Positions 12,001 through 21,000 of a DNA stretch of 64,000 nucleotides are shown piece by piece. The first letter of the stretch is position 1. Every line of letters starts with the position of its first letter. Source of the stretch: an uncultured bacterium (lineage in GTDB: Bacteria > Zixibacteria > MSB-5A5 > UBA10806); contig CBEUCH010000012.1 of assembly GCA_965541585.1 (NCBI GenBank), positions 1-64,000 of the forward strand, given 5' to 3'. A program made the position numbers.

Positions 12001-15000
12001 CAAAAAAAGATATTCAAAATCCTTCAGCCCGGGGAAATCGGGATTGAATTAAACGATAGTTGCCTGATGATACCCCTAAAATCGGTAAGCGGTGTCATAG
12101 TCACCGGCAAGAAGGAGACATTTGTTTTCGATGATATTTTTGATTTCTGTGCCGATTGCGATGATCGATCCTGTCAGGACAGGATAAAGACATTAATGGA
12201 ATCCAATTCATTTTGAGGTGATATATAATGGACACACTACAGTTGTTGAATGAGCGTCTGCAAAAAGGTGATGTTGAAAAGGTAGAGGAGCTGACTAAAC
12301 AGGCGATAGCGGAAAATTGCGGAGCCAAGAAAATCCTCGATGATGGATTGATTGCCGGAATGTCCATCGTGGGCGAAAAATTCAAAGCCCACGAGATATT
12401 TCTTCCGGACGTGCTCCTGGCGGCAAAGGCTATGTATGCGGGGATGGATCTTCTGAAGCCGCTCCTGGTTAAAAACCATATTTCGATGATGGGTAAAGTA
12501 GTTATCGGTACGGTGCAGGGGGATCTGCATGATATCGGAAAGAGCCTTGTCGGTATAATGCTGAAGGGGGCGGGATTCGAGGTTATAGATCTCGGCAGAG
12601 ATGTTTCCCCTGAGAAATTCGTTAATACGGCAAAGGAATCGGGTGCGGACATTATCGGCATGTCAGCGCTCTTAACTACAACGATGCCGGTAATGAAAAA
12701 GGTGATAAATCTGGCAAAGGAGCAGAAAATACGTGAAAAGTTTAAGATAATTATCGGCGGCGCTCCACTATCGGATGATTACGCAAATGAAATCGGCGCG
12801 GATGCCTACTGTTACGACGGTATCAATACTGTCGACTGTGTAAAACGCCTTCTGGGAGTCAATTAGATTGCGCAATCCTCTCGATCGAATAAAGGATGGC
12901 GAGGTTCTGGTCGGCGACGGCGCCATGGGGACAATGCTCATGAGCGAAGGATTGAAAGCCGGTGAATGTCCGGAGATGATAAATATTGAGAAGCCTCAGA
13001 TCCTGGAAAAGATAGCCAGACTCTATCTTGAGGCCGGCGCCGATATTATTCAGACAAATACATTCGGAGGATCGCCGCTCAAGCTTGCACAGTATTCTCT
13101 CGAGGACAGATCGGATGAGATAAATACTGCCGCAGTCAATGCCGCTCGCCGCGGAGCGGGCGACCGAGCTTACATTTCAGCATCCTGCGGGCCGTGCGAC
13201 CGTCTGTTAAAACCATACGGTGATACGGATCCGGAGGAAATATACAGAGGCTTCGAAATACAGATTCGGGCTCTGGTTGCTGCGGGAATCGATATGATAT
13301 GCATCGAAACCATGACTGACCTCAATGAAGCCGTCCTGGCAGTAAAAGCGGCAAAATCGGTTTCGCAGACAATACCTGTAGCCGCGACGATGACATTTGA
13401 TCTCACGCCGAATGGATTTTTCACAATCATGGGAACCGGTATCGAACAGGCAGCGACAGGTCTTGCCGATGCGGGCGCCGATATCATCGGATCAAATTGC
13501 GGCAACGGGATCGAAAATATGATAAAGATCGCAGAGGAGTTCAAGAAAAGAACGTCATTGCCCGTGATGATCCAATCGAACGCCGGTCTGCCCGTTATGA
13601 AAGGCGAGAATACCGTATACCCCGAGACCCCCGAGTTTATGGCAGAAGGATGCGAGAAACTTCTGAAAATCGGCGTTAATATTATCGGAGGATGTTGCGG
13701 AACCGCGCCGGATCACATTGCCGCATTCAGAAAAGTAATCGATGATTTCAAATAATCCTGAGTGATCTGCCTTCAGTATTTGTAATACACTTTACGTAAA
13801 GTCAGTATAGCGTGTGGACGAGAATCTCTTTACTATCTGGAATTTCGCGCTTTGAGCCATGATATGCCTTGACCTTATCAAAAGCGCAGATAACGCTATT
13901 TACTTTCAGCCTCCGAAAAATATATATTATCCTTAAATAATATTTTTATGGGACAGGATAAGTCCCGTCCCCTGAGCAGGAGGAGTGTGATCAAATGCCA
14001 GGCCAGAACCTGATCGAAAAAATCGCCGGGAAATTTGTTGTCGGGCTTGCCGAGGGACAGGTCGTCAGAAGCGGGGACTATATTTCCATAAAACCCGCTC
14101 ATGTCATGACCCACGACAACACCGGTGCAGTGATACCGAAGTTCAAATCGATCGGCGCCGCCGGGATCAACGATCCTCGCCAGCCGGTATACGCGCTTGA
14201 TCACGATATCCAGAACAAAGATCCGAAGAACCTGGATAAATACGCCAGAATAGAGGCTTTCGCTAAAGAGCACGGAGTCGATTTTTACCCCGCCGGACGC
14301 GGTATCGGCCATCAGATAATGTGCGAGGAGGGTTACGCCTGGCCCGGCACCATGGTAGTCGCCTCCGATTCCCACTCCAATATGTATGGCGGGCTGGGAT
14401 GTCTCGGAACGCCCATTGTCCGTACCGACGCCGCCGCCATCTGGGCTACCGGCCGTACCTGGTGGCAGGTGCCGCCCGTGGCAAAGGTCGAACTGAAAGG
14501 TAAGCTCAATCCGGGCGTCACCGGCAAGGATGTCATTATCGCTCTTTGCGGATTCTTCAACAACGATGAGGTTCTGAATCATGCTATAGAGTTTGCGGGC
14601 GACGGGATTGCCTCGCTGTCCATAGATCAGCGGCTGACAATCGCCAACATGACCACCGAATGGGGGGCGTTAGCCGGCGTATTTCCTTTCGATAATGTCA
14701 CAATCGAGTGGTTGAGGAAGAGGGCGGATTATATATCTCTTCGCGGACCTGCCGGCGTGCCTTCAGATGACGATGTGTCAAGCGGCCATCCGCGGATGAA
14801 CCATAAAAGAATAGATAAACTCGCAGAATCTACTCCGGTCGCCGATCCCGACGCTTTCTATGCCGGAGAACTAACTATCGCTTTAGGTTCTATCCAGCCG
14901 CACGTCTCCGGCCCCAATACGGTCAAGGATATGACTTCGATCGCCGAGATCGGCAAGAAGAATATCAAAATCGATAAAGCCTATCTCGTCTCCTGTGTCA

Positions 15001-18000: not shown

Positions 18001-21000
18001 AGCTGACTATGATGAAAAACACGGTCGATCCTATGGCCGTTCAGACCGGCGTATTTGCCGCCCTGATGGCACAGAAGGGATACACCGGCACCATCGAGGT
18101 TTTCGAGGGCAAAGAGGGATTCATGGACGTTTTCGGGCCGGACTGGGATATCGATAAGATGACCGGCGGCCTCGGCGACGATTACCGAATCCTGCAATGC
18201 AGCATGAAGGCATTTCCCACCGAGGCCCTGACTCATACTCATATCACCACCACGTTGAAAGTCGTCACCGGCAATGATATCAAGCATGATGATATCGAAT
18301 CAGTCACGGTAACTACAATCGCCCGCGCCTGCGATATTCTCTTCGATCCCCATAAATACCGCCCCGAATCGAGGGAGACGGCGGATCATTCGCTGCCATA
18401 TTGTATTGCCGCAGCTATAGTGGACAGACAAATCACCACCAACACCTTCTCCGAGGAGAAAATGAAAGACCCGCGTATCCGGGAGGTAATCGATAAGATA
18501 AAAGGGGATGCATCGGTTGAGTTCGAGAAGATGTTCCCGGCCAAACAGCCGTCGAAAGTGGTCGTGAAGACAAAGGACGGCAAGGAATATTCCGAATATT
18601 TGGAATATCCCAAGGGCGATCCGCGCGAGCCGATGACGACGGACGATCTCGATGCGAAATTCAATGCTCTCTCGGAGAAGCTATTATCTCCGGAACGGCA
18701 AAACGAGATCAGAAAGTTGATTTTTGAATGCGAAAATATCTCCGCCGTCGATTTCATGAATGGATTGATCGCATAGGGAAATCCATTTTAAGATGCCCAG
18801 GAAAAAACTAAAACGATTCGCTGCCCTCTCGACTTTCGATAATGTGTATGAAGATCCGCTCGATTGGAGAGGCAGATGGAGCCGGGCATGTTTCGGCAAT
18901 GATAATCCCGTAACCCTGGAGCTCGCCTGTGGCAAGGGTGAATATACAATTGAGTTGGCCCGGAGATTTCCGGATAGGAATTTTATCGGTATCGATAGAA
19001 AAGGAGAGCGGATCTGGAGAGGCGCCAGTACAGCCCTCGAACAAAATCTCAAAAACGTGATCTTTTTGAGAACCGATATCGAAAAGATCATCGATCTGTT
19101 CGGCGAAAATGAAATATCTGAAATCTGGATAACATTTCCCGATCCTTATCCCGGGCAAAGCAAAGCCTCAAAACGCCTCACCTCACCCCGCCTCCTGAAT
19201 ATCTACAGAAATGCCCTGACGCTGGACGGCATCATACATTTAAAGACCGATGATACAGACTTATTCGATTATACTTTGAGGACTCTGGAAACCGAAGATT
19301 GTATTGTCCATAGCATCACTCGCGATCTTTACAAACGGCCTGTCTCGGATGAGCTTCTTGCTTTAAAAACAACCTACGAAAAAATGCATCTCGAAAAGGG
19401 GAAGACGATCAAGTATTTGTGTTTCGGGTTCAAGAAACGTCTGGTTGATGCCCGTAAATATGGAGACGGAAATCCCGGCAAAAGGATGGCTAATGACGCC
19501 CTTATCGACCGAGCCGGGCCGTCAAAAAAGAGGTAATAATCGCTTTTAACTCATTGAAGATTGGTCTGTTGTCGGAGAAGGCCGTATGAACGCTAATGGT
19601 AAAATTCTGCAAAATATTGCGATGATGTGGTTGTAGCTCATCAAAGATGATTGATGAATTTCGTTAATCGCTTGAAAGATAACACATTACAACATGAAAG
19701 ATAAATATCGGTTTTGGCATGGATTTTGAGAAAGTAAGCATGTGATATAGTATAATATTTTGGAAAGGTTTAGGAAAAAAATGAAGAAAATAATCCTTGT
19801 TCTGACAATCGGGCTCTTGATGGCTCCTGCGGCCTATGCTGTTCCCCATCTACAGCTGTTCATCGACGGAGCGACCTATGATGACGTTACCGAGACCTGG
19901 GTCCTCGCGACCGCCGGAAGCTTTGATCTTTACGTCTTAAGCGCGAACGAGCCACATCAAAATGTTTTGGTCAGTATGGCGCTTGGGGGATTTGGCGAAT
20001 TTGAAAATCCTGATGGTATTGTCTCCCTATCAGGTTTTGGTGGACCGGCTATTGATGATTGGACATGGGGTTATTCTCCTTTGGGCTCTGCGCCAGGTTG
20101 GGACAGTAATGAGGATCTACCCCCACATGGAATATATCCGACATGGTTTGCTGAGGCGAATACGGGCAATTATAATATGTCACAGAATGTGGGCGACGTT
20201 AACCCCGGGCCTGATTTCTGGGATCCGACCATAAACGGCCCTGGCCCTGCGAATGCCAGTGGGCAATATAAAGTATTCAGTTTGTCAGTAAGCGCTCCAT
20301 TCGGGACATCAGTGCATTTCGACGCGTACACACTGGATGGCGATGTATTAGACGAATTTGCTCCATTTTCCCATGACGCCTCAACCACTATCATCCCGGA
20401 GCCCGGCACGATACTGCTCATGAGCACCGGCCTTTTTGGCGTGGGGCTTGCAGCTATCAGGCGCAGAAAAAGTTAAAAAAAGATAATTCTGATTTTCTTC
20501 CAGGCCGCTTCCCGACGAAGCGGCCTTTTTTTTGCCATCTTGCACTTTCCAGGTGTCGATAAATAGAGGAACGTATGAGGGGGAATTATCTTGTATAGAC
20601 AGGCAGAGAATATTATAATTTTATAACTGACTGTCCGGGAGAGGTGGCCGAGTTGGCTGAAGGCAGCTGCCTGCTAAGCAGTTATGGGGGAAACTCCATC
20701 CAGGGTTCGAATCCCTGCCTCTCCGTTGTGGTTTTTCCACTGTTTTCAATCTATATCCCGGATCATCTTGCGGATGCGGTGAAAAGCTCGAGTCTGATCA
20801 ACTAAACTATCCTCTACGTTGAGAATTCCTCCTATCTTGTGTTTTGGATAGTTCTCTTAGAAAATTGTTGGAAAGCAACTGTCTCGAATATCGATTTCAC
20901 CTATCCATCATATTGATTGGAAAGTCTAGCACGAATTTCAACAATCCCTTTTCTTAATCCAAGATTTTGTTTTCTTAATTGATTGTTGTTGACATTAACT

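Follow-up and report, generated by a model that had tools for sequence, protein, structure and literature searches.

A conserved bacterial gene module around a Lys4-type aconitase and its possible role in a homocitrate shunt

Gene content, co-occurrence, motifs and displacements show a real conserved module that unites an aconitase and a dehydrogenase with a C-C lyase, a PrpD-family protein and an HD protein, and it occurs in many sediment and soil bacteria. The two genes studied here, in a stretch of 64,000 nucleotides (the window) from an uncultured Zixibacteria bacterium, are scattered remains of this set. The initial annotation had proposed a conserved, undescribed bacterial module and not fungal lysine synthesis; this part stands, the module being apparently undescribed and distinct from the fungal saccharopine route, and a search of the open-access literature (subscription papers lay outside it) found no description in print. 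Its statement that the substrate was unknown and the evidence against a lysine role has to be revised in view of a dehydrogenase motif, the LysW operons and a lysine-catabolic island at locus L062. In our judgement the chances are about even that the module works as a homocitrate shunt, in which the aminoadipate pathway's first half runs mainly backwards. An NADP-type dehydrogenase would carboxylate 2-oxoadipate to homoisocitrate, a Lys4-type enzyme would dehydrate homoisocitrate to cis-homoaconitate, and the latter would be hydrated to (S)-homocitrate, the enantiomer of the biosynthetic form, by a PrpD-family enzyme or, in other lineages, by a second aconitase clade dedicated to this step. 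Cleavage by a Si-type system, which would be CitE with CitF or a citryl-CoA lyase with a CoA ligase, would then yield 2-oxoglutarate and acetyl-CoA or acetate. Such a shunt would be a reductive-TCA segment, one carbon longer, and a minority of carriers would use its first two steps forward for LysW lysine synthesis.

The Lys4-type aconitase, the PrpD-family protein and their junction

The aconitase gene (13995..15965, plus strand) encodes a single-chain protein of 656 amino acids. In a profile search it scored 880.2 with TIGR00139 (cut-off 529.9), the next model reaching 376, in agreement with the earlier placement above the fungal Lys4 equivalog model (880 vs 530). Inspection of the sequence located the three cluster cysteines, C334, C394 and C397, and the catalytic serine of GSSRE. 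From these features the hydratase is predicted to act on homoaconitate and homoisocitrate, at the step from cis-homoaconitate to homoisocitrate. Fungal Lys4 is described in PMC3556520 as catalyzing the homoaconitate-homoisocitrate step only, and a partner dehydratase would therefore be required.

The candidate partner is an MmgE/PrpD-family dehydratase (17409..18776, plus strand), for which the step from (S)-homocitrate to cis-homoaconitate is predicted. Both MmgE/PrpD Pfam domains (PF03972 and PF19305) were matched, and none of the prpD equivalog models was passed (score/cut-off 86/575, 80/950 and 63/458). The ATG at 17409 is favoured as start over a TTG at 17343, since relatives start at the equivalent of 17409.

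As had been noted before, one foreign gene separates the two: an ORF of 384 amino acids (16019..17173, plus strand) with a GC content of 37.7%, compared with 52-54% in the module genes. It matched no Pfam or NCBIfam family, had no homologue among the module loci compared, found only hypothetical proteins in the atlas, and is regarded as lying outside the module; in four relatives (L231, L319, L322 and L323) aconitase and PrpD adjoin without it. A plasmid match, sought at E 1e-150, was not found. By direct reading of the sequence, a hairpin led by GTAG lies at the aconitase stop codon (15962..15996, plus strand), a junction element rather than a metabolic one, and two more of this kind lie upstream of the PrpD-family gene (17286..17353, plus strand), one of them scoring as terminator-like on the minus strand. 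Promoter and terminator scans gave results at chance level, and no RNA holder was among the listed matches.

Composition and distribution of the module

Among 80 genome loci we counted the dehydrogenase in 59, the HD protein in 58, PrpD in 45, the citryl-CoA lyase in 10 and the ligase beta subunit in nine, bearing out the previous figures of 58, 58, 43, 10 and about eight for dehydrogenase, HD protein, PrpD, lyase and ligase. Within the phylum, sampled by 151 genomes, the dehydrogenase was present in 132, the citryl-CoA lyase in 128, the PrpD-family gene in 102 (the aconitase also being present in 86 of these) and the Lys4-type aconitase in 95; all five tested parts were found in 84 genomes and none in 15, counts that include related genomes, so that kin are not independent. 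In other loci a second aconitase clade takes the place of PrpD, and the two never shared a locus (0/20; 0/80). A strict requirement for PrpD was rejected: 17 genomes of the phylum have dehydrogenase, lyase and HD protein with neither PrpD nor Lys4-type matches, and the four of these that were checked contained the second aconitase clade and no PrpD-family gene. Module variants also use LeuC/HacA-type aconitases, and seven loci hold the peptide/pyruvate transporter CstA inside the operon.

The claim that this genome keeps all parts in pieces is correct for the dehydrogenase, the HD gene (C7:150186-150713) and the citryl-CoA lyase (C3:108880-109686), all found dispersed, but not for the ligase pair (C7:146625-149177), which is no orthologue of the operon ligase of 510-520 amino acids (158 vs at least 888 bits; a separate clade) and is linked to the module by synteny only, adjoining the HD gene in several families. 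Its beta subunit gave 269 bits to succinyl-CoA synthetase vs 118 to citryl-CoA synthetase, fell below the succinyl-CoA synthetase cut-off (350/370), and the ligase forms a clade of its own. The predicted structure of the HD protein (pLDDT 91) is closest to the YhaM HD domain (Z 17.0, rmsd 2.8, 157 residues aligned), and His occupied the first position of the HD motif in none of the 58 genome loci; structure and motif point to no function, and the protein appears to be a constant accessory of the module.

The lyase had been considered rare (7 of 25 genomes), a count that overlooked its commonest type. One of two mutually exclusive lyases was found in 49 of the 80 loci: a citrate-lyase-type CitDE/F in 39 and the ligase/citryl-CoA-lyase type in 10, with no locus having the two together. 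Both are related to cleavage enzymes. The citryl-CoA lyase of this genome belongs to its family by NF004869 (307/212) and by 244 bits to a solved citryl-CoA lyase, and the His, Arg and Asp columns of the citrate-synthase type are invariant in the citryl-CoA lyases. In the other type, a CitD-CitE fusion was present in 39/80 loci, with the ACP serine motif retained in 34 of the 39 fusions, and CitF in 36/80; CitF of the relatives' loci exceeded TIGR01584 (513/501), CitE stayed under its cut-off (296/443) and the CitE-type match to RipC was 166/375. The prosthetic-group synthase CitG was found in 0/35 CitDEF-type genomes, whose completeness is not given. This genome has no CitDEF citrate lyase. 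CitF-family matches in the phylum (27/151, none over the cut-off) were rejected as the module lyase, and in the four inspected they lay away from module genes.

Substrate and direction of the module

The module dehydrogenase (59815..60933, plus strand) is a beta-decarboxylating enzyme whose closest solved relative is the homoisocitrate dehydrogenase of T. thermophilus. It carries the homoisocitrate-type motif YSSPIVGLR, with Ser-Pro-Ile-Val replacing Ser-Leu-Asn-Val, and the aligned S. pombe homoisocitrate dehydrogenase reads YSSPIVALR. Of the 59 dehydrogenases at the loci, 58 have the motif S-P/A-I-V/L-x-x-R; none has the isocitrate motif, S-x-N-V-x-x-R. The NADP-type motif HGSAPKY occurred in 57/59, as opposed to HGSAPDI in the Thermus enzyme; the module dehydrogenase lacks the NAD-type HGSAPD motif and reached no curated cut-off for homoisocitrate dehydrogenase (best 333/540).

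A duplicate citrate branch, comprising citrate, aconitate, isocitrate and 2-oxoglutarate with citrate cleavage and serving citrate use or a partial reductive TCA cycle, would accommodate the likeness of the lyase to citryl-CoA lyase, the CitF score, an NADP motif as in isocitrate dehydrogenase, and locus L387, where HD and CitDEF genes lie beside a DASS transporter. We consider it very improbable given the missing isocitrate motif, the genome's own citrate synthase, NADP-isocitrate dehydrogenase and TCA-cluster aconitase, the absence of CitG from the 35 CitDEF-type genomes, and a second dehydratase that an ordinary aconitase would render superfluous.

LysW lysine operons in module genomes contained a homocitrate-synthase-like gene in 12 of 15 cases and an aconitase or dehydrogenase in none; in all five such genomes checked, the sole unassigned aconitase and dehydrogenase were those of the module. 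Since in these five only the module fills this gap, the denial of any lysine role was too strong. One scanned synthase-like gene in nine exceeded TIGR02146, and two of the genomes (G151 and G157) also have LysA. LysX was found in 14 of 63 genomes outside the phylum. At L062 the module is flanked on one side by lysine 6-transaminase (590/521) and piperideine-6-carboxylate dehydrogenase (779/730), and on the other by a glutaryl-CoA-dehydrogenase-like gene. The present genome, 98% complete, yielded no LysX over E 1e-40 and no LysX/Y/Z profile match; it passes the LysA model, and its one synthase-like HMGL protein (C1:416342) passed no model (TIGR02146 188/414). It has LKR-like, SDH-like and lysine-6-dehydrogenase-like genes, and lacks piperideine-6-carboxylate dehydrogenase and lysine 6-transaminase. 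The dehydrogenase motif, the LysW operons without these two enzymes and the L062 island together point to homoaconitate, homoisocitrate and 2-oxoadipate, and the homocitrate series is probably the substrate.

The doubt about lysine was justified in so far as no universal link exists: LKR, piperideine-6-carboxylate dehydrogenase or LysX occurred in only 23 of 132 dehydrogenase-positive genomes of the phylum, and piperideine-6-carboxylate dehydrogenase in 36/63 outside genomes, where it was not found in those of Terriglobia/Terriglobales. Most carriers thus show no recognised origin for 2-oxoadipate. LKR was rejected as a general source (16/151 genomes, no association with the aconitase). The 109/132 genomes with no recognised source fit a different acid, with reverse elongation of another 2-oxoacid (e.g., 2-oxobutyrate via citramalate, or a longer one such as 2-oxopimelate) and homocitrate as a side substrate only, as do the LeuC/HacA-type aconitases, the citramalyl-CoA lyases among CitE-type lyases (the RipC match) and CstA within operons. 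This is nonetheless improbable when set against the Lys4 model, the SPIV motif and LysW complementation, all indicating the homocitrate series, and against the invariant lyase residues, whose presumed roles favour a dicarboxylic oxoacid product.

Given the homocitrate series, the reactions probably, though with less assurance, run towards cleavage, from 2-oxoadipate, CO2 and NADPH via (S)-homocitrate to 2-oxoglutarate and acetyl-CoA. This direction is favoured by the cleavage-enzyme kin of the lyases, HGSAPKY, the L062 island, and the separate synthase-like gene kept by seven of the nine LysW genomes in which the module lyase is known. By analogy with the E. coli isocitrate dehydrogenase, NADP use would fit oxidative running as well. 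Cofactor and stereochemistry would be as proposed above, the mutual exclusion of PrpD and the second aconitase clade being counted in favour of the latter.

The same chemistry could operate forward, with the lyase as synthase joining an acetyl unit and 2-oxoglutarate to (S)-homocitrate (ATP being conserved in the ligase variant) and yielding 2-oxoadipate, CO2 and NADPH to feed glutaryl-CoA or aminoadipate. All steps are near-reversible, and ATP-citrate lyase runs towards citrate in Desulfobacter. In 4/80 genome loci and 1/80 metagenome loci the module has a glutaryl-CoA-dehydrogenase-like gene at its flank, 2-oxoacid dehydrogenase genes occur in L038, and LysW locus L246 has the module lyase and no synthase within 20 kb; the LysX genes outside the phylum point the same way. 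We nevertheless judge forward operation unlikely, as LysX was found in 1/151 phylum genomes, this genome has no glutaryl-CoA dehydrogenase orthologue (best 34%), and separate synthase-like genes are retained in 7 of those 9 LysW genomes.

Relation to known pathways and implications

The upper alpha-aminoadipate pathway of fungi and Thermus consists of homocitrate synthase, aconitase plus homoaconitase (Lys4/LysTU) and homoisocitrate dehydrogenase (Lys12). It shares with the module the Lys4-type hydratase, a YSSPIV-motif dehydrogenase and an isomerisation split over two enzymes (PMC3556520). The module differs in that homocitrate synthase is missing, its lyase is of Si type, its dehydratase belongs to the PrpD family or the second aconitase clade, its motif is NADP-type rather than NAD-type and the HD protein is present; downstream LysW genes occur in 1/151 phylum genomes. 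With the reductive TCA segment (isocitrate dehydrogenase, aconitase, and ATP-citrate lyase or citryl-CoA synthetase plus lyase) it shares reaction order and lyase fold, and the fusion of ligase alpha to the lyase in Verrucomicrobia module loci recalls ATP-citrate lyase; the module dehydrogenase, however, lacks the isocitrate Asn, there are two dehydratases, and ligase beta is nearer succinyl-CoA synthetase. The pairing of a PrpD-family protein with an aconitase, and the replaceability of PrpD by an Fe-S enzyme, are known from the 2-methylcitrate cycle (PrpC, PrpD or AcnD/PrpF, aconitase, PrpB), whereas the module PrpD lies below the cut-offs and neither PrpB nor PrpC is among the recurrent neighbours in the 80 loci. 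Being a tertiary alcohol, 2-methylisocitrate cannot serve an oxidising dehydrogenase as substrate. Citrate lyase (CitDEF with CitC/G/X) resembles the CitDEF variant in CitF and the ACP serine motif, and differs from it in the fused CitD, the sub-threshold CitE and the missing CitG.

Most likely, the module consumes a lysine breakdown product and CO2 and gives two everyday metabolites, with no need for oxygen. A fuller reading, which taken as a whole we hold tentatively and at somewhat less than even chances, is a widespread CO2-fixing, oxygen-independent chain-shortening of 2-oxoadipate via (S)-homocitrate, with interchangeable parts around a fixed dehydrogenase and HD core, that would serve most of the phylum and several others as a core pathway, possibly fed also by glutaryl-CoA carboxylation, and would be the bacterial home of the Lys4-type enzyme of fungi. 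The parts that would be interchangeable are the two lyase systems, PrpD or the new aconitase clade, and the Lys4-type or LeuC-type hydratase. If correct, 2-oxoadipate would have an exit needing neither oxygen nor glutaryl-CoA dehydrogenase, in which one CO2 is fixed and 2-oxoglutarate returned, and testable functions would follow for one PrpD clade that is so far uncharacterised, for one aconitase clade and for many proteins that now bear the label citrate lyase or citryl-CoA lyase. Such labels in sediment and soil genomes would then risk being misread as reductive TCA cycle, citrate fermentation or fungal lysine synthesis.

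A conserved module and its scattered parts

The fused aconitase-family protein (656 aa) encoded at positions 13995–15965 of the window scored 880 bits on TIGR00139, the fungal homoaconitase model (cut-off 530), with the next-best model at 376 bits; it passes the fungal Lys4 equivalog model, as the initial annotation had stated, and is by this sequence model a Lys4 family member. Downstream lies a PrpD-family gene (17409–18776) that scores under all prpD cut-offs; the low-GC ORF between the two is without a family and is missing at the aconitase/PrpD junction of relatives. GTAG-led hairpins or the 9-mer GTAGGTCGG occur on both sides of this insert (15962–15996, 17170–17178 and 17286–17353), the TAG stops of both the aconitase and the insert lying inside GTAG; the genome has 46 copies of the 9-mer vs ~27 expected by a naive estimate. 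The remaining parts are scattered through this 98% complete genome, with the dehydrogenase in the window (59815–60933), the HD protein on contig C7 and the lyase on contig C3. Positions 10037–13755 hold a split corrinoid methyl-transfer set of four genes (trimethylamine-methyltransferase-family, methionine-synthase activation-like domain, corrinoid protein and homocysteine methyltransferase domain), also present in locus L222. The TCA gene cluster (C1:455986–457458 and C11:623–3210, whose contig ends appear to join, cf. genome G118) contains a two-subunit HacA/LeuC-type aconitase beside malate and isocitrate dehydrogenases. An additional LeuC/D-type pair with an N-terminal extension (locus L086, C1:44597–46695) clusters with the L328 operon's second aconitase (support 96) and may duplicate the Lys4-type step.

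Genome loci were anchored on the aconitase, and partners were counted by profile in the best 80 of 599: dehydrogenase 59, HD 58, PrpD 45, CitD-CitE fusion 39, CitF 36, citryl-CoA lyase 10 and ligase beta 9, three weak PrpD matches (~75 bits) and one weak CitF match having been dropped by threshold. Twelve of these 80 loci were partnerless, five of them shorter than 14 kb. The two lyase systems were mutually exclusive in this set (CitD-CitE in 39, citryl-CoA lyase in 10, both in none, neither in 31), and the hypergeometric value of 0.0007 overstates this because the lyase groups are partly phylogenetic. Among 151 genomes sampled from the phylum, 95 had the aconitase, 132 the dehydrogenase, 102 PrpD, 128 the citryl-CoA lyase and 118 the HD protein; 84 had all five parts and 15 had none. 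The module proposed earlier is real; its parts co-occur in both the 80 loci and the 151 phylum genomes.

In families f7 and f15, ligase beta, ligase alpha, lyase, HD and aconitase occurred together in all seven regions examined, six of which also held the dehydrogenase. A second ligase pair, on C7, formed a clade separate from the operon ligase (24-row tree); pairs of this type lie near HD in members of f1, f2, f5, f12, f13, f14 and f17, and this synteny suggests a role in the module. In seven loci (L001, L013, L022, L029, L357, L386 and L396) a CstA-family transporter gene separates the dehydrogenase gene from that for HD, and histidine-utilisation genes are divergent, upstream of the module, in L044 and L080 (Planctomycetota).

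Probable substrates of the homocitrate series

The substrate is fairly well constrained and probably belongs to the homocitrate series. Thermus homoisocitrate dehydrogenase is the best solved relative of the module dehydrogenase (223 bits), a solved isocitrate dehydrogenase being close behind (216 bits). The module motif YSSPIVGLR resembles YSSPIVALR of S. pombe, and the true isocitrate dehydrogenase of this genome carries SLNVTLR. The homoisocitrate-type pattern was found in 58 of 59 locus dehydrogenases and the isocitrate pattern S-x-N-V-x-x-R in none; we take specificity to be set by these columns.

Complementation of LysW operons is a stronger substrate test than this motif. Of 63 module genomes that do not belong to the phylum sample 14 have LysX, as has 1 of the 151 within it. 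A homocitrate-synthase-like gene was present in 12 of 15 LysW loci of module genomes, and none of the 15 had an aconitase or dehydrogenase gene. All aconitase and Iso_dh family genes were listed in five of these 15 genomes; beyond the TCA enzymes and leucine-operon genes, the module aconitase and dehydrogenase alone were left in all five, and G157 has no Iso_dh match other than the module dehydrogenase, with the caveat that G151 and G157 also have LysA. TIGR02146 was the best equivalog for all nine synthase-like genes scanned, but only one of them exceeded its cut-off. At the expected place of LysK, the carrier-releasing peptidase, the LysW operons of L238–L242, L244, L245, L250 and L252 have a gene of 211–214 aa that gave no NCBIfam match at E 1e-25; true LysK is found in L243 and L246.

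Proposed chemistry and interchangeable parts

Our stereochemical model draws on established chemistry. With lyases of the citrate synthase fold, and with citrate (pro-3S)-lyase, the acetyl arm is lost from the Si side; for 2-oxoglutarate this Si-side rule gives (S)-homocitrate, and the product of homocitrate synthase is (R). The PrpD substrate is the product of a Si-type synthase. According to one report (PMC3556520), PrpD acts by syn-elimination, Lys4 catalyzes the isocitrate-side step only, and dehydration of (R)-homocitrate is within the reach of an ordinary aconitase. PrpD (or its replacement) and a Si lyase would therefore fit (S)-homocitrate. In the proposed route, 2-oxoadipate, CO2 and NADPH would yield homoisocitrate, which the Lys4-type enzyme is predicted to convert to cis-homoaconitate; PrpD or its replacement would then form (S)-homocitrate, to be activated to homocitryl-CoA and cleaved to 2-oxoglutarate and acetyl-CoA.

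An independent set of metagenome loci anchored on HD (best 80 of 246) showed the same neighbours as the aconitase-anchored set. Variant operons in it lack PrpD and carry two different LeuC/HacA-type aconitases, one of which makes up a 27-row clade (support 100; fast tree, 79 rows). Of these 80 metagenome loci 20 had this second aconitase clade, and all 20 lacked both PrpD and the Lys4-type enzyme; the best 80 of 599 Lys4-anchored loci had no member of it, and four phylum genomes with this clade lack a PrpD-family gene. From this displacement it follows that the citrate-side step always has its own enzyme. The hybrid locus L400 (9899–14516) mixes the lyase systems: a single run of genes encodes HD, citryl-CoA lyase, a CitF-type transferase and an aconitase of the second clade.

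The HD protein has a predicted HD fold like that of YhaM but no OB domain, and HD proteins of Lys4-type loci mostly lack the motif His. No CitG was detected among 35 genomes of the CitDEF type, whose completeness is not given; those lyases may therefore work with free CoA. At L387:405–5203 the HD protein accompanies separate CitD, CitE and CitF and a DASS transporter, dehydrogenase and aconitase being absent in 12 kb, a hint that HD belongs with the lyase.

Direction and place in metabolism

The direction is uncertain, cleavage being the more probable. Relatives of both module lyases are cleavage systems, and of the nine LysW genomes whose module lyase is known, seven keep a separate synthase-like gene (of the other two, one shows no synthase within 20 kb and the other has a truncated contig). 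The cofactor motif HGSAPKY, present in 57 of 59 module dehydrogenases, is similar to that of E. coli isocitrate dehydrogenase, the Thermus enzyme having HGSAPDI; NADPH could therefore drive carboxylation. Energetics permit both directions.

At L062 the module is flanked by a glutaryl-CoA-dehydrogenase-like gene and a thiolase on one side and by lysine 6-transaminase and piperideine-6-carboxylate dehydrogenase on the other, the latter two exceeding their cut-offs; L053 also has glutaryl-CoA-dehydrogenase-like and piperideine-6-carboxylate dehydrogenase genes. Against the cleavage reading, piperideine-6-carboxylate dehydrogenase was limited to 10 of 151 phylum genomes and 36 of 63 genomes from outside the sample, LKR to 16 of 151 phylum genomes, and 109 of the 132 dehydrogenase-positive phylum genomes lack LKR, piperideine-6-carboxylate dehydrogenase and LysX. 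All phylum genomes with lysine markers have the module dehydrogenase, an association that is not significant.

No description of the module was found in the open-access literature, and it is apparently undescribed, in keeping with the initial annotation, which had also set it apart from fungal lysine synthesis. The system in this genome belongs to neither the fungal nor the LysW lysine pathway, and it lies outside the methylcitrate cycle and canonical citrate lyase. In the proposed direction it would amount to the upper aminoadipate pathway run backwards, or to a segment of the reductive TCA cycle made one carbon longer. Benzoyl-CoA reductase subunit Q (passing TIGR03192) and related genes at C1:405740–417676 (L088) are a possible anaerobic source of glutaryl-CoA. 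This genome has LKR/SDH-like genes as an adjacent pair, LysA, and a protein closest to PH1688, itself taken here to be a lysine 6-dehydrogenase (database label 'uncharacterized'); neither LysW genes nor a glutaryl-CoA dehydrogenase orthologue were found in it. With this gene complement, the module would be the exit for 2-oxoadipate.
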